Source: Escherichia coli
Lineage (GTDB): Bacteria; Pseudomonadota; Gammaproteobacteria; Enterobacterales; Enterobacteriaceae
Assembly (NCBI RefSeq): GCF_041248615.1
Contig: NZ_CP158426.1
Strand: one strand, 5' to 3'
Length of the DNA: 64,000 nucleotides
Made by a program: the position numbers and the translations under genes. Below are positions 7,428-64,000 of the stretch, piece by piece. The stretch's first letter is position 1. Each line of letters begins with the position of its first letter. Under the pieces are notes generated by a model, which saw only the letters and a list, made by a program, of their open reading frames with translations, did not search any database and was not told where the DNA came from.

Positions 7428-8375
7428 ATGCGTGTGTTACTGGCACCGATGGAGGGAGTGCTTGACTCTCTGGTGCGTGAATTGCTGACCGAAGTTAACG
7501 ACTACGATCTGTGCATCACCGAGTTTGTCCGCGTGGTGGATCAACTGCTGCCGTTAAAAGTCTTTCATCGCATTTGCCCTGAGCTACAAAACGCCAGCCG
7601 GACACCATCTGGTACGCTGGTGCGCGTGCAGTTGTTAGGTCAGTTCCCACAATGGCTGGCAGAGAACGCCGCCCGTGCGGTGGAGTTAGGTTCCTGGGGC
7701 GTGGATCTCAATTGCGGCTGCCCGTCGAAAACGGTCAACGGTAGCGGTGGTGGGGCGACGTTACTCAAAGATCCTGAACTCATCTACCAGGGTGCAAAAG
7801 CGATGCGTGAAGCTGTACCGGCGCATTTGCCCGTCAGCGTGAAAGTGCGTCTGGGCTGGGACAGCGGTGAGAAGAAATTTGAAATCGCCGATGCGGTTCA
7901 ACAGGCTGGTGCTACGGAGCTGGTGGTGCATGGACGGACAAAAGAGCAGGGTTACCGCGCGGAGCATATTGACTGGCAGGCGATTGGCGAGATTCGCCAG
8001 CGGCTGAATATTCCGGTGATTGCCAACGGTGAAATCTGGGACTGGCAGAGTGCGCAACAATGTATGGCGATCAGCGGCTGCGACGCAGTGATGATTGGTC
8101 GCGGGGCGCTCAATATTCCCAACCTGAGCCGGGTGGTAAAATATAACGAACCGCGAATGCCGTGGCCGGAGGTGGTTGCTTTGCTGCAAAAATATACCCG
8201 TCTGGAAAAGCAGGGCGATACCGGGTTATATCACGTTGCGCGGATTAAACAGTGGTTGAGTTATTTGCGTAAAGAATACGATGAAGCAACGGAATTATTT
8301 CAGCATGTTCGGGTGTTGAATAATTCCCCTGATATTGCAAGGGCTATTCAGGCAATTGATATCGAGAAACTCTAA
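7428..8375 (+). CDS. dusC: tRNA-dihydrouridine(16) synthase C
   Basis: ORF 7380-8375; start set at [13 protein letters not shown] giving 315 aa; Dus TIM-barrel motifs; matches recalled DusC. Confidence 0.9.
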
Positions 8376-8416
8376 AAAACCATAGTGATGTTTTTTGACA
8401 ATGTGTTAGCTCTTTA

Positions 8417-8677
8417 TCAATAGGCCGCACGGTTGTTTGGTGGCGTCAAAATTGCCGAGGCGTTCCCTGAAGGCCGGGGCAGCCCACATGGATGTGGGCT
8501 GAGGGCGCGTTTTACAGGGATGTTACCTCGCGCCCGACCCGGTAGCCGTAAGGGATAAGCCGAGGGCACCGCGCAGCGGCGATTTTGTTCGCCAGAGCCC
8601 GGGGGTGCAGGGGGCGGCGGCGATTGGCCGCCCCCTGCGCGCTCCTTGCGCCAGTGATTATATGAAGCAATACACAT
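8417..8677. repeat. GC-rich palindromic intergenic element (not classic REP consensus)
   Basis: about 260 bp of very high GC with several perfect hairpins (CAGCCCACAT/ATGTGGGCTG; GCAGGGGGCGGC/GCCGCCCCCTGC); the 86-aa ORF on the minus strand is low-complexity Pro/Gly/Arg-rich and is probably not coding. Confidence 0.45.
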
Positions 8678-8747
8678 GACAGGAGCGCAACAGGATGAGA
8701 GACTGAAATATTCTCGTTATTTTCGGACCTGATGACATTAATTAATT

Positions 8748-8831
8748 TTAAAATATCATCTTAAATACGCCAGTCACCACCAGTAGCCCAATCAGGAAAA
8801 TAATCAATACAGCCCAGAGTATAATTTTCAT
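8748..8831 (-). CDS. yohP: 27-aa small membrane protein
   Basis: manual translation of the minus strand gives MKIILWAVLIIFLIGLLVVTGVFKMIF, identical to recalled YohP; below the ORF-track size cutoff. Confidence 0.85.
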   Translation of the reverse strand: MKIILWAVLIIFLIGLLVVTGVFKMIF

Positions 8832-9054
8832 TGGCGTTCCTTTATTTGTGAGTGCTGAATAAGTATAGGAAAAAACGAAGCCCTTTGCCGTTATCCATAA
8901 ACGATTAAGATAAATCGGAAGATATCATTCACTTAGTGTATATTTTTCTGGATATGTCGTTTTATTGCTACTGATGTATTGCCACGCGAAACTAAAAAAT
9001 ATATCGCAACACACGGTAATCTCCGCGCACCTTTTCTTACCTGATTATTCCCCC

Positions 9055-10491
9055 ATGAATCGTGATTCCTTTTATCCCGCCATCGCCTGTTTTCCGCTGT
9101 TACTGATGCTGGCCGGGTGTGCGCCTATGCATGAAACCCGCCAGGCGTTAAGCCAGCAAACGCCCGCTGCACAAGTTGACACCGCATTACCCACGGCGCT
9201 GAAAAATGGTTGGCCAGACAGCCAATGGTGGCTGGAGTATCACGATAATCAACTCACTTCCTTAATTAACAATGCACTACAGAACGCACCGGATATGCAG
9301 GTGGCTGAACAGCGCATTCAGCTAGCTGAAGCCCAGGCGAAGGCAATTGCTACTCAGGATGGTCCGCAGATCGACTTTTCTGCGGATATGGAGCGGCAAA
9401 AAATGTCGGCAGAAGGCTTAATGGGGCCGTTTGCTCTGAACGATCCGGCCGCAGGTACGACCGGTCCGTGGTACACCAACGGTACTTTTGGCTTAACGGT
9501 GGGCTGGCATCTCGATATCTGGGGAAAGAATCGGGCGGAGGTAACTGCTCGCCTGGGTACGGTTAAAGCACGAGCGGCGGAACGCGAGCAAACCCGCCAA
9601 TTGCTGGCTGGCAGCGTAGCCCGCCTGTACTGGGAGTGGCAGACCCAGGCGGCGTTAAACACGGTCTTGCAGCAAATCGAAAAAGAGCAGAACACTATTA
9701 TCGCGACCGATCGCCAGCTATATCAGAACGGGATTACTTCTTCAGTTGAAGGTGTGGAAACCGATATTAATGCCAGCAAAACCCGGCAGCAGCTCGACGA
9801 TGTCGCGGGGAAAATGAAAATTATTGAGGCACGGTTAAGCGCACTTACAAATCACCAGACAAAGGCATTGAAGCTTAATCCGGTCGCGTTGCCGAAAGTG
9901 GCAAGCCAGCTTCCTGATGAACTGGGGTACTCCTTACTGGCGCGGCGGGCAGATTTGCAGGCGGCGCACTGGTACGTTGAGTCATCGTTAAGCACTATTG
10001 ATGCGGCAAAAGCGGCATTTTATCCTGACATCAACCTGATGGCCTTCCTGCAACAGGATGCGTTGCACTTAAGCGATCTGTTCCGTCATTCCGCGCAGCA
10101 AATGGGCGTTACGGCAGGCCTGACGCTACCCATTTTCGATAGTGGTCGTCTTAACGCCAACCTCGATATCGCAAAAGCCGAAAGCAACTTGTCTATCGCC
10201 AGCTACAACAAAGCGGTGGTTGAAGCGGTGAATGACGTGGCGCGGGCAGCCAGTCAGGTTCAGACACTGGCGGAGAAAAACCAGCATCAGGCGCAAATTG
10301 AGCGCGATGCCTTGCGTGTAGTAGGTCTTGCGCAGGCGCGCTTTAACGCGGGCATCATTGCGGGTTCCCGCGTCAGCGAAGCCAGAATCCCCGCGCTGCG
10401 TGAGCGGGCCAATGGCCTGTTATTGCAAGGGCAGTGGCTGGATGCCTCCATTCAACTCACTGGTGCGTTGGGCGGGGGTTACAAACGTTGA
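9055..10491 (+). CDS. mdtQ: outer-membrane efflux lipoprotein (OMF/NodT family)
   Basis: ORF 8965-10491; start set at MNRDSF..., giving a lipobox LLMLAGC and 478 aa; OMF coiled-coil / beta-barrel architecture; intact single ORF. Confidence 0.8.
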   Translation: MNRDSFYPAIACFPLLLMLAGCAPMHETRQALSQQTPAAQVDTALPTALKNGWPDSQWWLEYHDNQLTSLINNALQNAPDMQVAEQRIQLAEAQAKAIATQDGPQIDFSADMERQKMSAEGLMGPFALNDPAAGTTGPWYTNGTFGLTVGWHLDIWGKNRAEVTARLGTVKARAAEREQTRQLLAGSVARLYWEWQTQAALNTVLQQIEKEQNTIIATDRQLYQNGITSSVEGVETDINASKTRQQLDDVAGKMKIIEARLSALTNHQTKALKLNPVALPKVASQLPDELGYSLLARRADLQAAHWYVESSLSTIDAAKAAFYPDINLMAFLQQDALHLSDLFRHSAQQMGVTAGLTLPIFDSGRLNANLDIAKAESNLSIASYNKAVVEAVNDVARAASQVQTLAEKNQHQAQIERDALRVVGLAQARFNAGIIAGSRVSEARIPALRERANGLLLQGQWLDASIQLTGALGGGYKR

Positions 10492-10543
10492 TGATATGCG
10501 CCTTCTATACTTAACGTTTATTCAGCGTTATGTGGAGAACTCG

Positions 10544-11305
10544 ATGGCACAGGTCGCGATTATTACCGCCTCCGATTCGGGGATCGGCAAAGAGTGCGCG
10601 TTATTACTGGCGCAGCAGGGGTTTGATATTGGTATTACCTGGCACTCTGATGAAGAAGGGGCAAAAGATACCGCGCGTGAGGTGGTTAGCCACGGCGTAC
10701 GTGCGGAGATCGTGCAGCTGGATCTCGGCAATCTACCAGAAGGGGCACTGGCGCTGGAGAAACTCATTCAACGGCTGGGGCGTATTGATGTGCTGGTGAA
10801 TAATGCGGGCGCAATGACCAAAGCGCCGTTTCTTGATATGGCTTTCGATGAGTGGCGCAAGATTTTTACCGTTGATGTCGATGGTGCATTTTTATGCTCG
10901 CAAATTGCTGCCCGCCAGATGGTGAAACAAGGGCAGGGTGGTCGCATCATCAACATTACGTCGGTGCATGAACATACGCCGTTGCCGGATGCCAGCGCTT
11001 ACACAGCCGCTAAACATGCGCTCGGTGGGTTAACTAAAGCGATGGCGCTGGAGCTGGTCAGGCATAAGATTTTGGTGAACGCAGTCGCACCTGGGGCGAT
11101 CGCCACGCCAATGAATGGCATGGATGACGGGGATGTGAAGCCCGATGCGGAGCCTTCGATTCCCTTGCGGCGTTTTGGCGCAACGCATGAGATTGCCAGC
11201 CTGGTGGTGTGGCTTTGTTCGGAGGGCGCAAATTACACCACTGGGCAGTCGTTGATAGTGGATGGCGGCTTTATGCTGGCGAATCCGCAGTTCAACCCAG
11301 AATAG
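10544..11305 (+). CDS. yohF: short-chain dehydrogenase/reductase
   Basis: start set at MAQVAIITASDSGIGKE (Rossmann TGxxxGxG), 253 aa; catalytic YxxxK (YTAAK). Confidence 0.85.
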   Translation: MAQVAIITASDSGIGKECALLLAQQGFDIGITWHSDEEGAKDTAREVVSHGVRAEIVQLDLGNLPEGALALEKLIQRLGRIDVLVNNAGAMTKAPFLDMAFDEWRKIFTVDVDGAFLCSQIAARQMVKQGQGGRIINITSVHEHTPLPDASAYTAAKHALGGLTKAMALELVRHKILVNAVAPGAIATPMNGMDDGDVKPDAEPSIPLRRFGATHEIASLVVWLCSEGANYTTGQSLIVDGGFMLANPQFNPE

Positions 11306-51212: not shown

Positions 51213-52037
51213 TTATCGCATTATGCCCATGAAGCCATGTACGCCCATATACACACCAACTAAGCCAATCAACAGACTGGAAAAATAGGGGGCGCGTTTA
51301 GCGAGAGTGTTAAATCCGCTCCAGCGTTTTGCGACCTGCTGAACGCTGATTGCTGCGCCAACGCCTACGGTGACCAGCGTTAACGCCAGGCCAATGCTGA
51401 AACTGACGACCAGTGTTGCGCCCAGTGTCAGGGCTTTCAACTGAATGCAAATCAACAGCACGGTAATTGCTGCCGGGCAGGGGATAAGGCCACCGGTTAA
51501 GCCAAATAACAAAATTTGCCAGTTGGTGACCTCTCTACCATCAAAGCGTCGTTTAATGTCATTGGCATGGGCTCGTGCATGGGCATCCTGATACTCGCCA
51601 TGTTCGTGATGGTGATGATGTCCATGGTCGTGGTGATCTTCGTGATCGTGGTGATGATGCTCATGATCATGCTCGTGCATATTCTCCAGCCAGTTTCGTT
51701 CGCCGCGCCAGGTACGCCAGAACATCCAGAACGCGGTGCCAATAATGATCACTGCGGAAATCAACTGGAGCCACGGTTCTGCTGATTGAGCAGTAAAGCG
51801 CTTGCTGATCACCATCCCGCCAAAGGCAATCAACCAGACCACTGCGGTATGCGAAATGGTTGCTGCCAGTCCGAGCATCACCGCCTGTTTAATGGTGCCT
51901 TTGATGGCGATGATAAACGCCGCCATCATCGTTTTTGAGTGCCCTGGTTCCAGGCCATGAAGCGCACCAAGTAAGATGGCGCTGGGGATGAAGAACCAGG
52001 CGTTTCCTTGCTGAAGAAGAGTTGTAAATTCGGTCAT
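51213..52037 (-). CDS. rcnA: nickel/cobalt efflux permease with histidine-rich loop
   Basis: 274 aa; His-rich loop HEHDHEHHHHDHEDHHDHGHHHHHEHGE between TM segments. Confidence 0.9.
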   Translation of the reverse strand: MTEFTTLLQQGNAWFFIPSAILLGALHGLEPGHSKTMMAAFIIAIKGTIKQAVMLGLAATISHTAVVWLIAFGGMVISKRFTAQSAEPWLQLISAVIIIGTAFWMFWRTWRGERNWLENMHEHDHEHHHHDHEDHHDHGHHHHHEHGEYQDAHARAHANDIKRRFDGREVTNWQILLFGLTGGLIPCPAAITVLLICIQLKALTLGATLVVSFSIGLALTLVTVGVGAAISVQQVAKRWSGFNTLAKRAPYFSSLLIGLVGVYMGVHGFMGIMR

Positions 52038-52074
52038 GATAATAATTCTTAGTATTAATTCGGCAATCTGATTC

Positions 52075-52109
52075 TACTCCCCCCCAGTACCTGATACTAC
52101 CCCCCAGTA
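52075..52109. promoter_or_regulatory. two RcnR operator sites (TACT-G6-N-AGTA) in the rcnA-rcnR divergent promoter region
   Basis: plus strand reads TACTCCCCCCCAGTA and TACTACCCCCCAGTA 5 bp apart; matches the published RcnR recognition motif. Confidence 0.8.
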
Positions 52110-52157
52110 GATTAATAGTGCTATGATTTTTCATATTCTTATTAACCAGGTGTTGCC

Positions 52158-52430
52158 ATGTCTCATACCATCCGTGATAAACAGAAACTGAAAGCGCGTG
52201 CCAGTAAGATTCAGGGCCAGGTCGTGGCGCTCAAGAAAATGCTCGACGAGCCGCACGAATGCGCTGCAGTTTTACAACAGATTGCTGCTATCCGTGGCGC
52301 GGTAAACGGTCTGATGCGGGAAGTGATTAAAGGTCATCTGACGGAACACATCGTTCACCAGGGGGATGAGCTAAAACGTGAAGAAGATCTGGATGTCGTT
52401 CTGAAGGTGCTGGATTCTTATATCAAATAA
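52158..52430 (+). CDS. rcnR: Ni/Co-responsive transcriptional repressor (CsoR/RcnR family)
   Basis: 90 aa; matches recalled RcnR; divergent from rcnA. Confidence 0.9.
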
Positions 52431-52519
52431 TTTATTAACGCTATTGTAAAACTGCCGTTTTTCCTCGTTTACAACGCGTGCGCTGGACATTACCATCCTC
52501 CTCTGCGATTTATCATCGC

Positions 52520-52600
52520 AACCAAACGACTCGGGGTGCCCTTCTGCGTGAAGGCTGAGAAATACCCGTATCACCTGATCTGGATAATGCCAGCGTAGGT
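52520..52600 (+). ncRNA. TPP riboswitch aptamer (thi-box) of the thiM leader
   Basis: AACCAAACGACTCGGGGTGCCCTTCTGCGTGAAGGCTGAGAAATACCCGTATCACCTGATCTGGATAATGCCAGCGTAGG matches the recalled E. coli thiM TPP aptamer; similarity ends at about 52600. Confidence 0.85.
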
Positions 52601-52654
52601 TGCCAACATTCTGATTAGTATTCATGTGGTTACATTTCTTTTTGTCCGTGTGTA

Positions 52655-53986
52655 ATGCACCTAATGTACAAAAAGAGCGTAAACATGAGGTACAAAACTC
52701 TTCCATACACGTTTCAAAGAAACGGTAATTACTATCTACAGATTCGGCTTTCGAATGGTCGGATGTATAAAAAATCACTTCTCACTGACAGCTATCGTGA
52801 AGTCTCTGCTTTGATGATTGGTGTTGCTCCGTACATTCCTTTTGTTAAATCATTAGCCATCACAATCCCGATGTTTGATGCCTTTGTTTCAAACCTGATT
52901 ATGTCAAAACTTAGGGCTGTAAAAGTTCCGCTGCTATCACATCAGTCGGTAATTACCCCTGCTACATTCGAGGAACCAGCGACACAAGCCGAACCGCAAA
53001 ACATGCTAACTCTTTCTGATGCGTGGGCTATGTATAAAGCGGAAAAGGGTAAAACATGGACAAAGTCGATCTCAAGGGCGAATGAGCGTTACATGGAAGT
53101 CTTGATGGTTGTCTTGGGAGAGACAACTGACGTAGTTGCGATTTCTAAGCAGGACATCAAGCAGGTGATGGAAGTTGTTGAGAATTTGCCTAAGCGTGTT
53201 GTCCAACCGTATCGCTCAATGAACATCCAGCAACTGATTGAATGTGATGATGTATCACCGAATGAGTTAGTAGGAGTGGAAGCCATTCATAAGCATCTCA
53301 AAATCTACAAATCGCTTTTCAAGACTTTTCTAACAGAAAACAAAGATATTTTGATTAAATCCCCAACTGATGGGGTAGTAGCAGCACCATCTAAAGCAAG
53401 GTTTGGAGCATACAGTTCGGCGGAGATGAAGAAGTTTGTAGAGTGGGCACTTAAGCAGCCAGATGGCTGGCAGAAGTGGATAACATTGTTGTTGGCATAC
53501 ACAGGAGCCAGAAGGGGAGAAATTGCCAAACTGGAAAAATCACAAATAAAATATGATGAGGATAGCCATCGGTATTATTTCCTGATTGCAGAAGGAGGGC
53601 AGGGGAAAACCGAAAATGCTACCCGACAAGTAGTGATACACCCTAAGTTGATCGAATGGGGTTTCATGGAATACGTTGATCGCCAGTGGAAAGAACGGAT
53701 TTTTTCAGAAGTGGCTGGTACAAACATGACGAAGATCGGTAAAGAATTTGCTGATGTGCGTGACCAGCTTGACATTCCGTACTTAGACGATTTTGGACAG
53801 CGGAGGCTTTTGCATAGCATTCGTCATTCTGTTTGCTCTACTGCGATGGCTGGATGGGTAAAGAACATCTTGCATCTGCAACAAACAGTAGGCCATGAGA
53901 AAAGTGGAGGGATCACTAAACGCTACTTACATACGTTCCCACTATCATCAATTTGTTATGTTATTGATGGGATTAGTTGGGTCTGA
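52655..53986 (+). CDS. tyrosine-type site-specific integrase (island integrase)
   Basis: C-terminal catalytic box LHSIRHS...GH...Y (R-H-R-Y tyrosine recombinase motif); true start may be the Met at 52685. Confidence 0.75.
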   Translation: MHLMYKKSVNMRYKTLPYTFQRNGNYYLQIRLSNGRMYKKSLLTDSYREVSALMIGVAPYIPFVKSLAITIPMFDAFVSNLIMSKLRAVKVPLLSHQSVITPATFEEPATQAEPQNMLTLSDAWAMYKAEKGKTWTKSISRANERYMEVLMVVLGETTDVVAISKQDIKQVMEVVENLPKRVVQPYRSMNIQQLIECDDVSPNELVGVEAIHKHLKIYKSLFKTFLTENKDILIKSPTDGVVAAPSKARFGAYSSAEMKKFVEWALKQPDGWQKWITLLLAYTGARRGEIAKLEKSQIKYDEDSHRYYFLIAEGGQGKTENATRQVVIHPKLIEWGFMEYVDRQWKERIFSEVAGTNMTKIGKEFADVRDQLDIPYLDDFGQRRLLHSIRHSVCSTAMAGWVKNILHLQQTVGHEKSGGITKRYLHTFPLSSICYVIDGISWV

Positions 53987-54203
53987 AACTGCTAAGAATG
54001 ATAGGAAAAGCTACTTAATGATCCTTAGTTTTGGATGAAATTGAAGATTACAAAGATCTTGAGCGAATAAGAGCGTTTTTTAATCAAAAAAGCCATAAAA
54101 ACTTTTCTTGACTGTATATTAACACAGTGCTTCTACTATGTAGAAGAAATCGACATGAAAAATTTGATATGGTAAATTTTATCCATGATAACAAAAAGGT
54201 ATT

Positions 54204-55106
54204 GTGGATATGTTACTACCAATACGAGTTCATAAACGATTTCTAACTTTATTTAAGACTTTGCAAATTGACGATTGCCCACCGCAATCAACTTTAAATA
54301 TTCATGTACTTAATATCGAAAGCAATGAATTTATATACTGTAAATTAGTTGAAGAATTACGTGACATAATAATTACTTATGTACATTCGAATAGAAGGCT
54401 TGAGGAGTTTAAGGAAAGTTATCCTTCGTATAGCCCTAAACCTTTTTTCGAAGCAATACAAAAATTTCGCAATTATACGTCAAACGAAGGTGAGTTAGGT
54501 GAACTGCTTTTATACGCTTTTCTTGAAACAGGACTAAATGCTCCGAAATTACTTTCCAAAATGCAATTGAAAACAGATTCTAATGATTACATTAAGGGTT
54601 CTGATGGTGTACATCTGTTAGAATTAGATGATGGTTATCAATTAATATTTGGAGAATCAAAGCTCTATGCCGATCTTTTAGAAGGTGCTCGAGAAGCGTT
54701 TGATTCTATTTTAGATTTTAAAAGTAATGGAATGGCATTTGAAAGAGGGCTGATAGATACACACGTTATAAATGAAATGGTTTCAGAAGAAGGTTATGAG
54801 AAAATAAAATCAATTCTTCTTCCTTCTTCTGGCGATGATGGGCCAGATCTTGATTTATCCTTTGGTATATTTCTTGGTTTTGAATTGAAAATAGATAGCT
54901 CACAGTTATCATTGAAAAACAAAGAGTTTAGAGATTGGGTTAATGAGTCCGTGAAACAACATGCTACTCGCGTGGTCAGTACGATACGAAGGAAAATTAT
55001 TAATCATAAATTATATGGTCACGAATTCCACATATATATAGTTCCTTTTACCGATATTGATGTTACACGAAAAAAATTAATTCATGAAATGCTAACAATT
55101 AAGTGA
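54204..55106 (+). CDS. PD-(D/E)xK-like putative nuclease, HamA-like (Hachiman-type effector candidate)
   Basis: 300 aa; motif ELDDGYQLIFGESK (D...ExK); stop overlaps the start of the downstream helicase gene by 4 nt; low GC, island context. Confidence 0.5.
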   Translation: MDMLLPIRVHKRFLTLFKTLQIDDCPPQSTLNIHVLNIESNEFIYCKLVEELRDIIITYVHSNRRLEEFKESYPSYSPKPFFEAIQKFRNYTSNEGELGELLLYAFLETGLNAPKLLSKMQLKTDSNDYIKGSDGVHLLELDDGYQLIFGESKLYADLLEGAREAFDSILDFKSNGMAFERGLIDTHVINEMVSEEGYEKIKSILLPSSGDDGPDLDLSFGIFLGFELKIDSSQLSLKNKEFRDWVNESVKQHATRVVSTIRRKIINHKLYGHEFHIYIVPFTDIDVTRKKLIHEMLTIK

Positions 55107-57691
55107 ACACTATGAATGAATTAAATTCAAGTAAAAACATTCATTTGGCAGCTCGTCTTGCAGATGATGCTTTTGAAAGTGCTTATTTTAAAGAAATCAA
55201 TAAGTTTATAAGTGGTTTATACAATTACAGTTTATTTAACTGCGATTCAGATGTTAGTCTCTCCGAGAGTGATAACAATAAAATAGCACACGCTTTGCGT
55301 TTTGCAGATATATTTTCACATTCTTCAAAAGAAAATCATAGATCATGTGCATTTGAAATTATAAGTAGAATAGCCTTATTAAAAAAACATGATCCTTATT
55401 TTAAATTTATAGGTACTGCTGTTATTAATCGGCTTGGGGTTTATGCAGCAGAAAAACTCATATCAAAAGGGGTAAAATTACCCTTAGATAGAGAAGTTGA
55501 TTCTATTATTAAAAAATCAGTTCAGAAAACAGATGAAGATGGAGTATATTTCACTGATAAACAACATGAGTTATACAAACTTTTAAAAAGTAGCAAAACA
55601 ATTAGTTTTGCTGGTCCCACTTCGATGGGAAAGTCATTTGTTATTAATGCATACATTAAGGAAATAACTCTTAAAAAAGAGCTTAAAAATATAGCTTTAA
55701 TTGTTCCTACACGGGCTTTAATAAGCCAAAATGCACTTAAGTTAAAAATTGATATTGCATTGTATAAGAATGAAAGCCCTTATAAAGTTGTTACGACATC
55801 CTACATTATTAATGGTGATGAAAGTAAAAATAAAGGCTATATTTTTATTCTCACCCCAGAAAGGCTGGTTAGTCTCATAAGCACTATTCCTGGACTAATG
55901 ATTGATTATGTTTTTGTAGATGAAGCTCAAAAGTTAACAACAAAAAATGATTCGAGGAGTCTTGTTACTTATTCAGCTATAGAGCAAACAATTAGTAAAA
56001 ATCCTGAGGCAAGATTATTCTTCTCTTCACCTAATTTATCTAATCCTGAAATATTTAATATTTTGTTTGATAGAAAAGACGCTTCGGTATATAGAAATAC
56101 AGAAGGTGCAACTACTCAGAATATGTATTTTATTGATCTTTTAAATAGCAGCTTTAGCTATGTTAATACCGAGAAAAGGACGCTTGAAAAAATAGATGAG
56201 ATCTCTAATACTTACACGAATACAAATGATGTTATCTATAAATTAAATAATGGTAAAAGTAAAATAATTTATTGTGGGGGGATAGAAAGCACGCTTGAGA
56301 GAACACGTAGCTTTATCAATTATCTCAAAATTAATAAGAAAAAAAGAAAGCATTTAAATTTAGAAATATCTTCTGAGATAAGAAACTTTGTTCATGATAA
56401 CTATGAACTTGCAGAAGCCATCAACTATGGTGTTGCTTTCCACTTTGGAAACTTGCCTCAATCGATTCGAGATTTAATTGAGCATCATTTCAAAATAGGA
56501 AATATTGACTATCTATTCTGTACATCAACCCTACTTGAGGGAGTCAATTTACCTGCAAGATCCGTATTTATTCTTACGCATAAAAAAGGCCCCAGTCCAT
56601 TAGAGTCGGTTGATTTTTGGAATCTGGCTGGGAGAGCTGGGCGATTATCTATGGAATTGTCAGGGGATATTTTTTGTATTAGGGATGATAATAAGCTTTG
56701 GAATAAAAAAGCTGTTGATAATATCCTTCTGTCTGACAAAAATAACATTTCATTAAAGCCAAGCTTCTATATTGAAGACGAAAAAAGATTGAACGATTTA
56801 CACCATATAATTACGACTGGTAAAACAGGGAATATTAAAAATGCTGAGTTCCTTAGAACTTTAGGAGATATGATAAGAATAGACACTCTGAGGGATTCTA
56901 AAGAACTTCCTCTTATTAGTTATTTCCAAAGCAGTGGAAAATCAGAAATTTTGTTAAGTGCAGAAAAAAGCACTGAAAATATTACCATGCCAATGAATAT
57001 CCTTTTGGCAAATAGTCATATTGCGATTGATTCGCAGTATCATGCTTTTAAAAAAATAAAAAGCCTTACAGTTAAGGAACTGAAATTATCATGGCAGCCT
57101 ACATACGAAGAAATTAAAGAAAAATTGAATTTGATATTCGATATTTACCAAGTTGAAAAGTTTGCAACAGGTAGAGAACGTCTTTATTTAAATTCAATTC
57201 CATATTATGCAGTATTACTGTTTCAATGGATTCGTGGAAATAGTCTACAGGAAATTATCTCGGGGGCAATTGCTTATAGAAAGAACAAAAGTATATATAT
57301 TAAAAATACACCTGTTCTTTTTGACAGCGAAAACCCAGCTCATTTAACTGCATTAGTTAATGAAACTATAAAAGACATTGAGTTGCGTGTAGGTTACCAG
57401 TTACAAAATTATTTTTCACATTACTGTCAGCTTCTGAATTATGTGTTACAAGGAAATCCAGGGGCAAACTGGTCTCAGTTCATTGAGTTTGGCTCTAATG
57501 AGCCAATAGTATGGCACCTACAAATGATGGGCTTTTCAAGGGATAGTGCAGTTTTTCTCAAGAAGAATTTTTCAAAACATCTTAAACTTGATAATGAAAT
57601 GAATAAACTCATCATAATGGATAAGGAACTGATCAAGCGTTCTTTCAAAAAAGATGGACTACATTACTTAGAAATCCAATCGTTATTATAA
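55103..57691 (+). CDS. SF2 helicase, HamB-like (Hachiman-type helicase candidate)
   Basis: 862 aa; Walker A AGPTSMGKS, Walker B FVDEAQK, SSP motif, motif V TSTLLEGVNLP and motif VI AGRAGR. Confidence 0.55.
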   Translation: MNTMNELNSSKNIHLAARLADDAFESAYFKEINKFISGLYNYSLFNCDSDVSLSESDNNKIAHALRFADIFSHSSKENHRSCAFEIISRIALLKKHDPYFKFIGTAVINRLGVYAAEKLISKGVKLPLDREVDSIIKKSVQKTDEDGVYFTDKQHELYKLLKSSKTISFAGPTSMGKSFVINAYIKEITLKKELKNIALIVPTRALISQNALKLKIDIALYKNESPYKVVTTSYIINGDESKNKGYIFILTPERLVSLISTIPGLMIDYVFVDEAQKLTTKNDSRSLVTYSAIEQTISKNPEARLFFSSPNLSNPEIFNILFDRKDASVYRNTEGATTQNMYFIDLLNSSFSYVNTEKRTLEKIDEISNTYTNTNDVIYKLNNGKSKIIYCGGIESTLERTRSFINYLKINKKKRKHLNLEISSEIRNFVHDNYELAEAINYGVAFHFGNLPQSIRDLIEHHFKIGNIDYLFCTSTLLEGVNLPARSVFILTHKKGPSPLESVDFWNLAGRAGRLSMELSGDIFCIRDDNKLWNKKAVDNILLSDKNNISLKPSFYIEDEKRLNDLHHIITTGKTGNIKNAEFLRTLGDMIRIDTLRDSKELPLISYFQSSGKSEILLSAEKSTENITMPMNILLANSHIAIDSQYHAFKKIKSLTVKELKLSWQPTYEEIKEKLNLIFDIYQVEKFATGRERLYLNSIPYYAVLLFQWIRGNSLQEIISGAIAYRKNKSIYIKNTPVLFDSENPAHLTALVNETIKDIELRVGYQLQNYFSHYCQLLNYVLQGNPGANWSQFIEFGSNEPIVWHLQMMGFSRDSAVFLKKNFSKHLKLDNEMNKLIIMDKELIKRSFKKDGLHYLEIQSLL

Positions 57692-57697
57692 AACTGC

Positions 57698-57727
57698 CGA
57701 ATCAGAGTCTTTTATTGATTCTGATTC
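57698..57727 (+). terminator. hairpin downstream of the helicase gene (no clear U-tract)
   Basis: CGAATCAGA-(loop)-TCTGATTCG. Confidence 0.35.
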
Positions 57728-57999
57728 GCACTTATATAGTTAAATCAAAAGGAGCATTAAAATTTTTCAGTAGCGATTTAGTATGCTAAATCGCTGCATA
57801 ACGAATCTGCTTCTAAATCTTGATTAAGTGTTTCGAACTGCCTTGATTGTTTATTGCTACACTTTATAATTAATCGCAACACACAAAACAATACAATGTA
57901 GGCAGTTGCACAGAATTAATTACAGGCACATTATGGATATCGAGAGGATTCGAACAGTTTTAAACTGCAAGCCCTTTGACTTTATCCCCTCCTACTATA

Positions 58000-58575
58000 T
58001 CAGCGTTTGATGCCGCTAATACTGGCAAGCATTTCTTTCTTCACACGAAAAACTGTAGCCCTGCCGCAATCACATAACTTTGCTATCTCGTCTGGTGTAT
58101 TCTTCCCGGCCTGTAACATATCGATAATCTTGTTATGTAGCTCTTTGTTCTTTTGCTTGCCCTTGTACTTCTTAGCCTCTTTAGCAAGAGCAATCCCCTC
58201 ATTGCGACGAGATGCGATCATACCCCGCTCAAATTCTGCAGCGGCTCCCATCATGGTTAGGATAAGGCGTGATTGTGGGGAATTATCAAAACTCATAGAG
58301 TTTGCAAGGAATTGAACAGTGATTCCACGAGCCACGAGGTTATCAATCATTTCCAGCAAATCGCGGGTATTACGTGCAAGGCGATCAATCGAGTGAGTAA
58401 CGAGCGTGTCACCTTCGCGGAGGTGTGAAAGCAGGTTCAACAATTCAGGTCTTTCGCTGGTGGACTTACCTGATTCTTTCTCTGCCACAATTTTGTCACA
58501 AACAGGTTCCAGCACTGCCAACTGACGCTCAAGATTTTGATCCTTTGTTGAGACTCTCGCGTAACCAAAAATCAT
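58000..58575 (-). CDS. serine recombinase (resolvase/invertase family)
   Basis: N-terminal catalytic domain MIFGYARVSTKDQ with catalytic Ser, C-terminal HTH; 191 aa. Confidence 0.85.
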   Translation of the reverse strand: MIFGYARVSTKDQNLERQLAVLEPVCDKIVAEKESGKSTSERPELLNLLSHLREGDTLVTHSIDRLARNTRDLLEMIDNLVARGITVQFLANSMSFDNSPQSRLILTMMGAAAEFERGMIASRRNEGIALAKEAKKYKGKQKNKELHNKIIDMLQAGKNTPDEIAKLCDCGRATVFRVKKEMLASISGIKR

Positions 58576-58589
58576 TTTCCTGCCCTCAC

Positions 58590-58665
58590 TTACGTGAAAA
58601 GTATCATTTGAATTTACTTAATGATACAGTATCATTTAAATGCATTCAACATCTAAATGATACTA
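58590..58665. promoter_or_regulatory. res-like recombinase binding site (imperfect inverted repeats) upstream of the serine recombinase gene
   Basis: repeated TATCATTT(A/G)AAT half-sites in inverted orientation (GTATCATTTGAAT...ATGATACA; TATCATTTAAATG...ATCTAAATGATAC). Confidence 0.5.
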
Positions 58666-59125
58666 AACGAGACGAGAAAAGCGAGTATCGTTAGGGAGTA
58701 CCCAAAAGAGATTTTTGATCGTGCGTTTTTTAGTCAATGTAGGGTTAGTGAAAAGTTCAGTACCGAGATCTGAGTTCACGGCATTTTGTCGACGGGGTTG
58801 AACCTGATTAGGCGAACGAGATTTTAAATCAGGCGGAATAAAACAAGTTGTACTTTTATCTGAGTAAAAGATCCCTTTAACTTTTTAGTCAGAAATCGTG
58901 ATACTAGGGGTTTGGTTATTTTGTGTCCTTAAGGCCAGTACTTTTAGCGAGGACGAAAAAACGGCCTACATGAGAACGCTTACAGTAACTTAAGTATATT
59001 ATCCAAAAAGTCACTTAACTTAAATCAATTTGGATGCAAAATCGCCACACTTTGCAAGTGAACACATACCGGGCAACAAGCAAATAAAAAAGGCCACTTT
59101 CGCGACCTTGTACCAGTACAAACAC

Positions 59126-59485
59126 TCATTCAGAACGATCAAGTACCATATATGCTGGCTGACACATGCTGCCCCGCTCCTGTAGCCAGTAGTAATCAAG
59201 ATCGGCAACACGCACGTCCAATCCAGAATCTACACGGTTGATCTGTAACCGTAGCCCTACAGTATCCTTGTACGATAAACCAGATTTAACATTGTATTTG
59301 TACTTAACACCGTTTTCCTGTTCAAACTGTTTAAGGAAAGGCGTCATTTGTTTCTGAATTTCTTTCAAACAAATAACCTCATTATCAATAGCAAAGGGGG
59401 GTTCTGTTTTTCCATCAGGTACAGCAGCCTGTAAATGAAAGGAAGTACTCAACAATAACAGCATTGCAACAGAAGTCTTTTTCAT
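59126..59485 (-). CDS. small secreted protein of unknown function
   Basis: 119 aa; cleavable signal peptide MKKTSVAMLLLLSTSFHLQA; 43 nt downstream of the membrane protein gene. Confidence 0.6.
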   Translation of the reverse strand: MKKTSVAMLLLLSTSFHLQAAVPDGKTEPPFAIDNEVICLKEIQKQMTPFLKQFEQENGVKYKYNVKSGLSYKDTVGLRLQINRVDSGLDVRVADLDYYWLQERGSMCQPAYMVLDRSE

Positions 59486-59528
59486 TTTAATTCCTTATTA
59501 AAGAACAGTACATTATATTTCAATGGAC

Positions 59529-60569
59529 TTAATAACAATATTTTATATTTCCTTCGGGTTTTCTCATGCATTTAATTCCTTCAGGAATATAATCAGTTAC
59601 GGGAGCAGGTCTGGCATCAGGTCTTGAAAGACGATTGGATATAGAAGACAACAGACTGAAAACACACTCATTAAATGATTTTTGATATTTATTTTTTTCA
59701 TAAAAGTACTGCATGGTGATTTTATCTCTTTCGTATTGCAATTCTTTGCCAAGCTGAATCCTATCCATATCAATTCCATTTCTCATAGCATTAAATCTTT
59801 CGTTCAATAAATTAAATTGAGATTTATTCCATTCATTTAAAGGAAATAAAGAATTGTTAAGCCTTTGCCTACAATTAGATTGCTCGATAGCTGACATGTA
59901 TTCTTTCATACTAACGCCAATATCTAAGTATGTGAGTTGTCCAGCAGTTCTATCAACTGAGTTATTAGGGTAAGATTTAATTTCAGTAAGTATTGACTCT
60001 GTTAATACTGCATTTTCTTCTAAATCTTTGCTAATAGTTATTTGAGCTTGTTCTCTTTTATCCTTATCAAATATTGAAATGTATTTCTTTACTATATCCT
60101 GATTAGCTTTCTCGGCTGCTACTAACGCATCTTGAACCTTCTTTTCCGCCGCTTTAACTCGTTGTTCTTCTACAAATTTCGCGTAGTCATCAGTATTTGT
60201 AATGTGATTTTCACGAGCGATAGAAAACTCTTTACTATCTTTAAAACCAAGTTTTTGTGCTCTGGCTCCATCGCTTGAAGATCGGGCAGAACTTGCCACG
60301 AAAGCGAGCACAATGATCAGTACAGGAACCGTATAATTATTAACGAGTTTATAGGGTAAGAACTTCGCTTTAAGCGTACCATAACCCAAAACAGCCCAGC
60401 CTATCGCGGCAGTACTTGCCAGTAGCTGGCACAATCCAGCGACGGAAAGCATGATTACCGACCAGAAGCCTGTACCGACTGCGAAAAGATCACCAAATTT
60501 CTCCATTGACGCAAGGAATAAAAACACTCCCCAAATGCCATAAAATCCTATTTTCAAATATTTACTCAC
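59529..60569 (-). CDS. 3-TM membrane protein with large charged coiled-coil-like C-terminal domain, unknown function
   Basis: 346 aa; three N-terminal hydrophobic helices followed by a K/E/Q-rich soluble domain. Confidence 0.6.
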   Translation of the reverse strand: MSKYLKIGFYGIWGVFLFLASMEKFGDLFAVGTGFWSVIMLSVAGLCQLLASTAAIGWAVLGYGTLKAKFLPYKLVNNYTVPVLIIVLAFVASSARSSSDGARAQKLGFKDSKEFSIARENHITNTDDYAKFVEEQRVKAAEKKVQDALVAAEKANQDIVKKYISIFDKDKREQAQITISKDLEENAVLTESILTEIKSYPNNSVDRTAGQLTYLDIGVSMKEYMSAIEQSNCRQRLNNSLFPLNEWNKSQFNLLNERFNAMRNGIDMDRIQLGKELQYERDKITMQYFYEKNKYQKSFNECVFSLLSSISNRLSRPDARPAPVTDYIPEGIKCMRKPEGNIKYCY

Positions 60570-60779
60570 CGCAATTATCCTTTAATAATTTTCCAAATCG
60601 ATGGTTCGTTCTATTTGTATTATCGACAATAATTCGTTTGCCTTTAGGTAGATCCCTTAAAAAGGAATCCCCCCAAAATTTATAGATTAGCAGTTGTACC
60701 ACTCTCACTGTTTTGTCACTCCCATTATCTTCTCTCAGGTCAAAAGTACGGACTTAAAGCCGTCCGTGTTCAGGTGCTC

Positions 60780-60900
60780 AAGAGTAGCACGCATATCAAT
60801 AAATGATCGATAAAAACGATCAATTAATGGCTTATTGATCGCTATAACCTATCAATGACTATTAATTCAATACAAATCAATAGGTAAAATCGATCAAGAG
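60780..60900. repeat. AT-rich cluster of ATCAAT/ATTGAT repeats with GATC sites (iteron/origin-like or protein-binding array)
   Basis: five ATCAAT/ATTGAT copies and four GATC sites within about 120 bp, in an ORF-free region. Confidence 0.45.
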
Positions 60901-61552
60901 GATTCGTCATCCATGAAAGGGGTTATGTATCTGATTTCAATACAGGGAGTATTAGCGATACCATCACGCAAACGCTCTTAAAGCGTAGCTACGGCGTTTT
61001 GTAGGGTTTTTGGTCATTCATGTGTGTCAGTAATGAACATCGCATTCAGGGGCTTCCTGTGCGTTTTGTCCGAAACACCATCATGAAGGGGGACAGATCG
61101 GATCGGGGTCGCTTCGCTCTGGTCAGTACTGGATAGTTCTTTTCCAGTAACTGAAACCGCAGATACCCCACTAAGTACACAAAGGAATTATTTGTAGAAT
61201 AAGTAATGAAATAACAGTCAGTTATGTACTTACTGACAGAACTAAAAACGCGATTAGGTTCGCTCTGTCAGTGACCGAAGGGAACGCAACAGTAGAATCT
61301 AATCCAGCGAACAGTACACGCAAGCGGGTGCTGTTTAATTGTTTTATCTATGTAAACAATGGGATAGCTATCAAGTACTCACTGCGTGAGCACTCTCACT
61401 AACTACCCGAAACAGTTCGCTTGCTTCGCCGCTCCTACTTTCAGGTAGTTAATTCGCTTTCGCTCGTTGTGATGTCCGAAATTTATTACCTATAGTATTA
61501 TAAGGTATTATTTTCCGGACATTTATGTATTTTTATGATGGTGTTCTGGACA

Positions 61553-63028
61553 TCATTTTTTGCTTTTTTGTACTTCCTTTTCGTATTTGTTCCACATAGC
61601 CTTTTGCTCTTCGGGACTGAGTGCTGTATTACCACTGGCAAGAAACACCTTGAACGCTTCTAACTCAAGCCCTGGGTTGCGGCTTTTCCAGCGGCGAAAA
61701 CGCTTAGCGTGATTATCATCAAGAGTGAAACGCTTTTGCTTATTCTTTGAACCTTGCGGCCTGCCTCTCGACCTCTGCTCATCATCAATACCGATATCTA
61801 TATACTCAATATTATCTGTAAGAGATCTGGCTTGCCATTCATCAAAAACATAAACAGTCTGTGTTTCAGTACTGTCAAAATCCCTTGAAATTCCTCGTAG
61901 TACGAACTGGTGTAAACTTTCGTACTCCCTCGCAACATGTATCGCCTCGCCGTCAATCTCAAAGAACAATTCGCACTGTTTAGCCTCTGTTTCAGAGGGA
62001 CGCATACAAGCGAGCCAGACGCACGTGAGCAAGTGTTGGTACTGGTTAAACCCTCTGGCATCCGGGCTTATCTCTGTGCCGTTTTTGAGGCTCTGAGAAT
62101 CGCTTTTGTTCTTCGTCCAGTAGAAATCCTGTCCCTCAAGTTTTTTATCAATAAATGAGTATATTTTTTGTACTTTATCAGGGTTATTAGTCTTCCATGT
62201 CTTCGATAGTTTTTGATTTTTTGAGAAGTAATAAACCTTTAATCTGTCTTTGAGAGCTGTTTTTCGTGTCAGTAATCCTCCAAGTTCAGTACTTTCAAAG
62301 AGTTCTTTATTGCCTTTATAGATCAATGAATTTTCGAAATTAGCTCCGAGAAAGGTGATTGATACGTCTTTGTACTTACTGAGATCTTTCCATGCGGTAA
62401 TATTAAGCTGTTCCTTTTTCGCATCGGTAAAGTACTCATTATTCATGATGAACATATCATTTTCGTTAATTGCTGGTAGCTGGTTCAAAATATTCTTCAG
62501 TACTTCCCCTTGTATTTCTGGTTTTCTTTCTGCCGCAATATACATATTTTTATCATCTAATGTCAGTACATTGTGTATTAATGAATTAAGAATTGTATTT
62601 TTTATATTAGTATCACCCTCATTAATATTCTGAAAAGAGTGAAAATTAGTAACGTCGTCAATATAAATATTACAGTCAGATAACAATTCAGGAGGAATTT
62701 TGAAAAACGTTTTATCTGTTATGAGTAATGTTTTATTACTTCCAGATGAAAGAAAGTTAATAACTGAATTAATAACACTTTCATCTTTTGGTACTGTATC
62801 TGTAATTATATACTCGCAATTATTGATTTGCTTTGCTGTCTGCTTAATAAGTTCTTGAGTGTTCTGTACTAAAATATATTTTTCAGTACTGTTATTGATT
62901 ATATTGCATATAGCAGTAGTTTTACCTGAACCACAAGGGGCGGAGACATACTTAAATTTATTATAAATAGGTGTGGGATTAATCATTTGTACACGCTCCA
63001 TATTGATTAATGTAGAAAGGTCAGCCAT
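61553..63028 (-). CDS. P-loop NTPase with C-terminal AT-hook (RGRP-GSKNK) DNA-binding tail, unknown family
   Basis: 491 aa; Walker A APCGSGKTT near the N-terminus, candidate Walker B NIYIDDV; C-terminal RSRGRPQGSKNKQKR matches the AT-hook consensus. Confidence 0.6.
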   Translation of the reverse strand: MADLSTLINMERVQMINPTPIYNKFKYVSAPCGSGKTTAICNIINNSTEKYILVQNTQELIKQTAKQINNCEYIITDTVPKDESVINSVINFLSSGSNKTLLITDKTFFKIPPELLSDCNIYIDDVTNFHSFQNINEGDTNIKNTILNSLIHNVLTLDDKNMYIAAERKPEIQGEVLKNILNQLPAINENDMFIMNNEYFTDAKKEQLNITAWKDLSKYKDVSITFLGANFENSLIYKGNKELFESTELGGLLTRKTALKDRLKVYYFSKNQKLSKTWKTNNPDKVQKIYSFIDKKLEGQDFYWTKNKSDSQSLKNGTEISPDARGFNQYQHLLTCVWLACMRPSETEAKQCELFFEIDGEAIHVAREYESLHQFVLRGISRDFDSTETQTVYVFDEWQARSLTDNIEYIDIGIDDEQRSRGRPQGSKNKQKRFTLDDNHAKRFRRWKSRNPGLELEAFKVFLASGNTALSPEEQKAMWNKYEKEVQKSKK

Positions 63029-63359
63029 TCCAGTGTCTGGCCTTTCGTTGTTTTAGTTATTAGTCTTTTTGAGTTGCGACAACTGCAAGAGAATGTTTAT
63101 AAACAAGTGAAATAAGCAGTTTTACCGCCTCAAAAGCTACAGTCAGTTTCGTAATTATTTTCGAAAGCATCGTAAATTTCACTTCGCTATCTTCTATGCA
63201 AAAATTAGCAGCCTGAGGTATTTAATGATTGAGATGTGGCCTGTTGATAAGAGGGTTTGTATTGCTTGTTCTGCTCTTTGTTAATTTGTGACTTATTCCT
63301 TTCACAATGATCGGCTATGTTTGATAACTCTGTTAGGAAATCACCTATGGCTACCATAT

Positions 63360-64000
63360 TGGATTTGCCCCTATATTTCCAGACACCTGTTATCACTTAA
63401 CCCATTACTGGCCTGCTGCCGCAGATATTCCCGTGGCGAGCGATAACCCAGTGCACTATGCGGATGCCATTCGTTATAATGCTCGAACGCCTCTGCAAGG
63501 TTCTTTGCTGCCGTTAACCCGTCTGGTTTAGGCATGATACTGATGTAGTCACGCTTTATCGTTTTCACGAAGCTCTCTGCTATGCCGTTACTCTCCGGAC
63601 TCCGCACCGCCGTGTTCTTCGGTTCAAGCCCCAATATCCGGGCAAACTGCCGTGTTTCATTAGCCCGGTAGCATGAACCATTATCCGTCAGCCACTCTAC
63701 TGGAGACGCCGGAAGCTCGTTGCCGAAGCGGCGTTCCACCGCTCCCAGCATGACGTCCTGTACTGTTTCACTGTCGAAGCCGCCCGTAGTGACTGCCCAG
63801 TGCAGTGCCTCACGGTCACAGCAGTCCAGCGCGAACGTGACTCGCAGTTTTTCTCCGTTATCACAGCGGAACTCGAACCCGTCAGAGCACCATCGTTGAT
63901 TGCTTTCTTTCACGGCCACTTTGCCAGTATGTGCCCGTTTCGATGGCGGTACAGCGGTTTTTCGCTCAAGCAACAGCGCATTCTGGCGCATGATCCGGTA
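63360..64000 (-). mobile_element. IS2 (IS3 family), partial; right terminal inverted repeat at about 63360, element runs past the window end
   Basis: terminus TGGATTTGCCCCTATATTTCCAGACA matches the recalled IS2 end; encoded protein matches the recalled IS2 InsD (OrfB) C-terminus. Confidence 0.85.
63371..64000 (-). CDS. insD: IS2 transposase OrfB (InsD), 3' portion; 5' end beyond the window
   Basis: translation ...[39 protein letters not shown]...[19 protein letters not shown] matches recalled InsD (DDE integrase core). Confidence 0.85.

Follow-up and report, generated by a model that had tools for sequence, protein, structure and literature searches.

This analysis concerns a stretch of 64,000 nucleotides of the Escherichia coli chromosome (contig NZ_CP158426.1 of RefSeq assembly GCF_041248615.1), referred to here as the window, and within it a group of three minus-strand open reading frames (ORFs), ORF119, ORF346 and ORF491, which are named after the number of amino acids they encode, together with a gap of 983 bp that separates the latter two. 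The region is read here as the conserved backbone of an undescribed type of small (~6–12 kb), site-specific integrative island of the Enterobacterales, which carries exchangeable anti-phage cargo and a putative helicase replication module; for this reading as a whole the evidence appears about evenly balanced. On the basis of sequence comparison, the three genes and the gap appear to be not a defence system but the chassis that these islands share, with the Hachiman genes that lie beside them in the window as payload. In the collection of papers that was searched, none describes this backbone or an island at the thiM riboswitch, or cites the RefSeq accessions.

A backbone shared by islands at different insertion sites

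In E. coli strain KE55, to which the region is 100% identical, the island is bounded at both ends by perfect 80-bp direct repeats that lie 11,326 bp apart, giving an island of ~11.3 kb. The repeats are part of the thiM thiamine pyrophosphate (TPP) riboswitch, which is the insertion target of the island. The left copy (attL) was mapped from KE55 to positions 52523–52602 on the plus strand of the window, and the right copy falls past an insertion sequence (IS), outside the window. The gene order of the KE55 island is tyrosine integrase, Hachiman, a 191-aa small serine recombinase, ORF119, ORF346, the gap, ORF491 and a 74-aa ORF. The original prediction, which was made from the sequence alone, had placed the three genes in a mobile island next to a defence-like helicase pair, and both parts are borne out: the island is flanked by att sites and the pair is Hachiman (HamA and HamB, as identified with PADLOC).

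Using megablast, the block was found in 84 of 5,426 complete E. coli genomes, in every case on the chromosome. The annotated context defines four insertion sites: the thiM leader (tyrosine integrase, Hachiman as cargo), the inside of ppdD (large serine recombinase, two hypothetical proteins), ffs (tyrosine integrase, with a small DUF2188 protein in one strain and dual-OB/DUF488/DUF4326 plus HNH/DUF6998 genes in another) and yggR/yggS (large serine recombinase, a STAND ATPase). The gene order is the same at all four sites; the integrase, the site and the cargo differ. The same layout is present in Dickeya, Klebsiella, Providencia, Tenebrionibacter, Enterobacter, Raoultella, Phytobacter and Pantoea, the Klebsiella island having SLATT, mSLOG/DUF4326, DUF488 and DuOB genes as its cargo. 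It is also carried by 25 metagenomic contigs, which were retained from 67 matches in a motif scan after 42 chance matches had been removed with nhmmer. The backbone runs in the order integrase, helicase (ORF491), ~1-kb gap, membrane protein (ORF346) and small secreted protein (ORF119), with the cargo and the small serine recombinase at the far end. Its constant parts are the helicase, the gap, the N-terminal transmembrane (TM) domain of the membrane protein, the small secreted protein and the small serine recombinase, and its variable parts are the integrase, the insertion site and the cargo. Because the block recurs at several sites, where the integrase and the defence cargo (Hachiman, the STAND ATPase or the SLATT/DUF4326/DUF488/dual-OB gene set) are not the same, it is backbone and not cargo. 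The small serine recombinase is found in nearly all of the related islands examined and is 92–95% identical at the protein level between E. coli and Dickeya, Klebsiella, Tenebrionibacter and Pantoea, compared with 83–87% for the helicase; the module should properly also take in this recombinase and the 74-aa ORF that lies upstream of ORF491. In some islands an alternative small serine recombinase is found that is only ~31% identical.

It had originally been predicted that an NTPase, a membrane effector and a secreted component act together here as one abortive-infection or exclusion system, a view we now regard as improbable. The genes do co-occur widely, as the original prediction had proposed to check, and the Hachiman genes lie beside them in the island; in addition, variation is seen both in the small partner and in the C-terminal domain of the membrane protein, which is what an arms race would produce, and some islands have a lysozyme-inhibitor-like protein of the LprI family as the partner. 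However, it is the three genes that stay constant whilst the known defence systems are exchanged around them, and ORF491, ORF346 and ORF119 match none of the families of PADLOC-DB 2.0 at E ≤ 0.01. The three genes do not form one unit either. In an IMG/VR contig (L019) the cargo lies between a helicase 49% identical to ORF491 and the membrane/secreted pair, and in E. coli NCTC86 (L020, 9002–13617) the pair is kept without an ORF491-like helicase, which indicates that the helicase and the pair are separable units, apparently also as separate transcription units. Finally, homologs of the helicase are fused to primases, as described below.

The helicase ORF491

ORF491 (61553–63028, minus strand) had been described as a 491-aa P-loop NTPase with a C-terminal AT-hook. 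The ORF lies where it was drawn, as do the other two, and both features are upheld by the conservation of the Walker A and B motifs and of the RGRP core among relatives; the length is not. Met15 (62986) is the start used in RefSeq and in most homologs, and a GGAG Shine–Dalgarno sequence lies 9 nt upstream of it, with none before Met1, so that the protein is probably one of 477 aa (61553–62986). Residues of Walker A (G33 and K36), Walker B (D124) and motif VI (Q374, R378 and R382) are invariant in 45 relatives, and the combination of Walker A, Walker B, the motif VI arginines and two RecA-like domains identifies the protein as a member of helicase superfamily 2 (SF2). The RGRP core of the AT-hook is invariant in close relatives (G422, R423 and P424) and is also found in the consensus of distant relatives and in the primase fusions. 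The best structural match is to the XPD/DinG-like fold, followed at the C-terminus by the AT-hook and a three-helix tail; there is no cysteine among the invariant or near-invariant columns of the 45-sequence family alignment that would correspond to the iron–sulphur (Fe–S) cysteines of XPD/DinG.

Similarity to named families is confined to short segments of the protein. Pfam recognises a ResIII/DEAD P-loop segment only, matches to PDB sequences are at the level of the P-loop only, and the NCBIfam CyRepA1 model (NF042913) scores 20.3 bits over residues 26–75, which does not reach its curated cut-off of 200 bits. The one full-length match is to phrog_2467 (E 1e-38), a family whose function is not annotated. 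A full-library search gave 382 cluster representatives related to ORF491, several of which are 750–990 aa in length and consist of an ORF491-like module fused to another domain. The N-terminal parts of three of these (P0275, P0283 and P0323) match PHROG DNA primase families (E 8e-31, 8e-22 and 2e-14, respectively), and the primase-fused relatives also match a ‘replicative helicase-primase’ PHROG family. The contig that encodes P0283 is phage-like and 51 kb long; it has genes for lysozyme, endonuclease I and a portal protein, and a small resolvase gene lies 1.3 kb downstream of P0283. The linkage of helicase and resolvase persists in relatives that are only 38–43% identical (L023 and L024). In AFDB the family extends across alpha- and gamma-proteobacteria and includes forms of ~800 aa, with one structural relative annotated as having a VirE N-terminal domain. 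Given the primase fusions and the resolvase-linked context, replication of the element is the best-supported candidate function for ORF491. Of the two findings that had been held to speak against a joint function, the first, that the genes never occur together elsewhere, is contradicted by their wide co-occurrence; the second, a match to an unrelated and well-characterised family, holds in part, in that the primase-fused relatives point to replication but no well-characterised family was matched.

The helicase relatives in L023 and L024 lie beside a small resolvase gene and a CI-like S24 repressor gene with a divergent Cro-like helix-turn-helix gene, and the adjoining repressor and Cro-like genes suggest SOS-responsive control of these elements.

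The non-coding gap

The gap between ORF346 and ORF491 (60570–61552, minus strand) contains no ORF longer than 59 aa, in agreement with the non-coding region of ~1 kb that had been reported. An ORF of 48 aa (60562–60708, minus strand) overlaps the GTG start codon of ORF346, and its DNA is conserved in Dickeya. The first 750 bp of the gap are 78–95% identical between genera, compared with 73–76% at the third codon positions of ORF491; as the gap is thus more conserved than the synonymous sites of the adjacent helicase gene, it is under purifying selection and is not a neutral spacer. When the relatives were compared using nhmmer, the gap was found to be modular, with three modules that are distributed separately.

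Module 1 (61472–61552, minus strand) occupies the first ~90–100 nt directly past the helicase stop codon and consists of TGTCCGRAA boxes and an ATGTCC...TATAAT...GGACAT palindrome. It is found behind the helicase gene in every relative, including that of Providencia and the 49%-identical homolog. The helicases fall into two clades, at least 79% and ~54–58% identical to ORF491, and the variant of module 1 matches the helicase clade without exception in 28 sequences. Module 2 (61067–61470, minus strand) is a core of ~400 nt with hairpins on the helicase-sense strand, as supported by its identity between genera, its folding z-score and its covariation counts, and differs hardly at all between the two helicase clades. 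Providencia has in its place an unrelated sequence with a 199-bp tandem duplication and a third, partial copy of 82–96 bp; no tandem repeats were found in the gap of the E. coli type. A second, partial copy of the hairpin region (model positions 96–202) lies upstream of the helicase in Raoultella (L013, 9782–9873) and in a matching metagenomic contig (L087, 4239–4330). Module 3 (60797–60900, minus strand) is rich in GATC and consists of clustered ATTGAT/TTGATCG repeats, among them TTGATCG-N7-CGATCA palindromes (4 matches, compared with 0.12 expected); its conservation extends to Providencia. The module accompanies the gene for the membrane protein, lying directly upstream of it in L019 and being kept in L020 without the helicase, and is likely the operator/promoter region of the ORF346 operon.

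The core is bracketed by 21-nt inverted repeats (61067–61087 and 61532–61552). This arrangement, together with a highly conserved, invertase-like recombinase that is always present, would fit a 444-bp invertible switch flipped by the small serine recombinase in the manner of Hin or Gin. Such a switch is very hard to reconcile with the genomes: a synthetic query with the segment inverted was intact in none of the 52 E. coli genomes with the region, and a single orientation was seen in all 52 and in all other aligned loci, so that the switch was rejected and is left with a very small likelihood.

The folding of module 2 was assessed on both strands. The helicase-sense strand folds better than its shuffles (minimum free energy z −3.7; 0/100 shuffles as low), compared with a z of −1.9 (4/100) for the antisense strand. 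An alignment of 28 distinct sequences was used to score covariation; these sequences diverge little and also served to derive the structure. The RNAalifold structure for this alignment has three main hairpins and a number of smaller ones, and it is closed by a long-range helix in which the two 21-nt inverted repeats pair with each other. Of the cells, 98.3% are paired; there are 21 double-change cells, compared with 8.5 in shuffles (0/500), and a covariation score of 0.074 was obtained, compared with 0.063 in shuffles (0/500); one pair splits into 14 C–G and 14 U–A, with G–U intermediates that are compatible with the sense strand only. For two further measures significance was not reached (24/500 for pairs with a double change and 272/500 for further pair types), and the RNAalifold covariation term was near zero.

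It is plausible from these results that module 2 is either a structured RNA or a set of single-stranded DNA hairpins used in initiation. The first of these can be put more specifically, in that the ~400–480-nt core of the gap would encode a structured RNA on the helicase-sense strand, acting as a primer, a copy-number regulator or a partner of the helicase, which overlaps with the replicative-island reading and which we hold only tentatively. It is favoured by the sense-strand folding and the covariation above shuffles, by conservation of the core well beyond that of the flanking protein and by the TATAAT within the upstream palindrome. It is weakened by the low divergence and by the scoring of a structure on the sequences from which it was taken, as well as by the two covariation measures that failed and the near-zero RNAalifold term. 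Moreover, a scan for promoters and terminators gave no convincing sense-strand candidate for module 2, and a search of positions 52000–64000 with the Rfam covariance models (E ≤ 1) gave no match in the gap, the only hits being the TPP riboswitch and a chance-level CRISPR direct repeat; DNA hairpins or protein-binding palindromes could also yield similar patterns, and the Providencia core is replaced by unrelated tandem repeats. The most far-reaching form of the idea, in which the core is a structured RNA that works with an XPD-like SF2 helicase (as primer, copy control, guide or scaffold) in a new class of self-replicating mini-islands shuttling defence among the Enterobacterales, is less probable still and in our view rather unlikely.

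The membrane protein and its secreted partner

ORF346 (59529–60569, minus strand) starts with GTG, and the three TM helices and the charged C-terminal domain that had been noted are recovered, the helices being predicted at residues 3–30, 35–62 and 80–107 and the C-terminal domain being predicted as all-helical. In its homologs, which are mostly ~257 aa in length, the N-terminal ~140 residues are 70–90% identical and the C-terminal domain varies in both length and sequence. From the distribution of charge in the loops and four invariant cysteines in the C-terminal domain, ORF346 is probably an inner-membrane protein with a periplasmic C-terminal domain; a fold search returned only generic helical bundles. 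ORF119 (59126–59485, minus strand) has the predicted signal peptide, a hydrophobic N-terminal segment ending in LQA/A, and two cysteines, and is predicted to be secreted. Its family is 70–99% identical across the Enterobacterales, with all members annotated as hypothetical. Neither ORF346 nor ORF119 has a Pfam, NCBIfam, PADLOC or PHROG assignment, which, with the short ResIII/P-loop match of ORF491, agrees with the earlier view that no function can be assigned to the three proteins from their sequences.

The small partner of the membrane protein is ORF119 in most islands and an LprI-family protein in others, and the two types of partner have no detectable homology to each other; ORF119 itself occurs with more than one C-terminal type of membrane protein. 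In ~40 E. coli genomes, a homolog of ORF119 is found in an ffs-site island in which the membrane protein is shorter, the gap is kept in its downstream half and an ORF491-like helicase is absent. An intrinsic-terminator-like hairpin with a T-run was detected in a consensus terminator scan just past the ORF119 stop codon (59090–59109, minus strand), and this site, together with the pair's own upstream GATC-rich region, argues that ORF346 and ORF119 likely form an operon of their own. It is possible that the pair alone acts in envelope or surface exclusion, or in exclusion at the periplasm.

A model for replication of the island

We infer that ORF491, the gap and the small serine recombinase are the replication parts of the island. 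Following excision, ORF491 would act as the replication helicase or initiator of the element; its AT-hook and helical tail would bind the palindromic, clade-specific boxes of module 1 and the AT-rich centre, where the helicase would unwind the DNA. The hairpin-rich core of ~400 nt may then serve as a single-stranded element in initiation, either as an RNA primer or regulator or as priming signals in single-stranded DNA, and the role of the small serine recombinase may be to resolve circular multimers of the island. A separate, envelope-located operon of two genes, possibly for surface exclusion, would be formed by ORF346 and ORF119. A cis element in the gap is favoured by its conservation above that of synonymous sites, by the presence of module 1 behind every helicase gene in a variant that matches the clade, and by the 199-bp tandem repeats of the Providencia version; AT-rich windows are present in the gap.

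Several observations weigh against such a replicative island. A circular form was not detected, as there are no terminal overlaps in the 25 metagenomic contigs and none of 72,556 plasmid records carries the region, and the genes of the island include no primase or polymerase. The E. coli-type gap shows no significant iterons, in that its offset self-similarity is not above that of shuffles; only short ACTGAC/AGCGAA motifs were seen, with an enrichment of ACTGAC that is modest and confounded by shared ancestry, and the gap contains no DnaA box and no IHF site of note. The core is common to two helicase clades that are only 55% identical, and it is therefore not a co-evolving binding site of the helicase. 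SF2 helicases of the XPD/DinG-like fold act in repair or defence more often than in initiation. The argument from primase fusions rests on relatives at ~25–37% identity, and ORF346 and ORF119 are left unexplained by the model.

The constancy of the core across two divergent helicase clades is also what would be expected of a site that has to match an external machine, and the island may accordingly be viewed as a pure hitcher, in which the core is an oriT or a packaging site recognised by a plasmid or phage that acts as helper, with the helicase aiding mobilisation and not replication. Integrase-only defence islands with unexplained mobilisation have been documented in E. coli (PMC10121019), islands with only an oriT are reported to be common (bioRxiv 10.64898/2026.01.13.699239), and one relative (L019) adjoins lambda-like terminase genes. 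However, neither the E. coli-type nor the Providencia-type gap has blastn similarity to the 72,556 plasmids or to 50,697 phage records that would indicate mimicry of an oriT, pac or cos site (similarity below ~65% identity would escape this search), the island has no relaxase or terminase gene, and the helicase family is linked to primases and not to relaxases. This alternative is accordingly judged unlikely.

Other features of the island

The TPP riboswitch at attL is matched by Rfam at 52522–52617 (58 bits, above the gathering score). As only 80 bp of the aptamer are duplicated, part of the aptamer is island-borne. The tyrosine integrase of the island, a protein of 433 aa in RefSeq (52688–53989, plus strand; phrog_1 integrase, E 4e-26), lies ~70 nt downstream of the riboswitch on the same strand, and because of this position the integrase might be under thiamine-riboswitch control. 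The Hachiman cargo follows (54204–57691, plus strand), with HamA at 54204–55106 (PADLOC, E 2.4e-120) and HamB at 55103–57691 (E 8.3e-296). A weak Rfam CRISPR-DR61 match inside hamB (57393–57430) scores 26 bits compared with a gathering score of 38 (E 0.66) and is most likely due to chance. The small serine recombinase (191 aa; 58000–58575, minus strand) is of the resolvase/invertase type, with NCBIfam matches of the Mpi/XisF type.

At the other end of the island, the 74-aa acidic ORF upstream of the helicase is intact in KE55 and is truncated in the window by an IS insertion at ~63361. Its remnant (63205–63360, minus strand) was located by alignment to KE55, and tblastn matches residues 25–74 only. 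The identity to KE55 breaks at ~63361, from where an IS3-family (IS2-like) element with a transposase OrfB-like ORF (63371–63991) interrupts the right end of the island (63361–64000, minus strand).

In contig L019, the genes for the helicase, the membrane protein and an LprI-like protein (8191–10555) adjoin lambda-like small and large terminase genes, and a prophage may border or enclose this island.

Comparison with known systems and significance

The region is best described as a small integrative, probably replicative, island that shuttles defence systems, with a helicase type and a conserved non-coding element that were both previously uncharacterised. It resembles the Staphylococcus aureus pathogenicity islands (SaPIs) and phage-inducible chromosomal islands (PICIs) in being a small, att-flanked island in which a helicase-type gene is followed by a conserved non-coding cis region and accessory or defence cargo is carried; the spacing of the repeats (11,326 bp) and the integrase at one end agree with the size and organisation of a PICI (~10–15 kb, integrase and att). 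It differs in that there is no primase, the helicase is of the XPD/DinG-like SF2 type with an AT-hook, and the E. coli-type gap has no clear iterons. Neither PICI packaging and interference genes (terS, ppi, cpm or capsid) nor AlpA/Stl-type regulators were found by PHROG or in the RefSeq annotation of the island, the only PHROG matches of the tested island proteins being to an integrase and to phrog_2467 and phrog_31024, which have no annotated function; since these genes and the usual regulators are absent, the island is not a PICI.

The region also fits the integrase-only defence islands of E. coli, which are small, sit at chromosomal hotspots, carry an integrase or recombinase with defence systems and have no known mobility genes; their mobilisation was left unexplained and their other genes unassigned (Hochhauser et al. 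2023; PMC10121019). The difference is that here a backbone common to several insertion sites and genera has been defined. Bacterial replication proteins can be SF2-type helicases, as is shown by CyRepA, an experimentally validated Rep of cyanobacterial plasmids in which a DEXDc helicase is joined to a Toprim-like domain (PMC10079941). CyRepA and the primase-fused relatives of ORF491 share the pairing of a DEXDc/SF2-type helicase with a primase-like domain, but the similarity is confined to the P-loop region (20–27 bits against a cut-off of 200 bits), ORF491 itself has no primase-like domain, and CyRepA belongs to plasmids and not to integrative islands. With XPD/Rad3/DinG, ORF491 shares intact ATPase motifs and two RecA-like domains that contain insertions; it is much smaller (477 aa), has no conserved Fe–S cysteines, carries the AT-hook and helical tail, and its sequence similarity to them is limited to motif I. 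A functional analogy, and not homology, may be drawn with herpesvirus UL9, an SF2 helicase that acts as an origin-binding initiator with a C-terminal DNA-binding region; the sequence match of UL9 to ORF491 is marginal (E ~1.2).

Many E. coli anti-phage systems reside in small integrase islands that have no recognisable replication or transfer functions, and how these islands move is an open question (PMC10121019). The islands described here could be related to hitcher islands, and their backbone names candidates for the missing functions: an SF2 helicase linked to primases by gene fusion, a modular non-coding element under strong selection and a highly conserved small serine recombinase. The non-coding core, which has no counterpart in Rfam, is itself a candidate for a new structural element of RNA or DNA. 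Furthermore, the backbone provides a new bait for defence cargo, the slot for which is bounded by the island end on one side and the membrane/secreted pair on the other.

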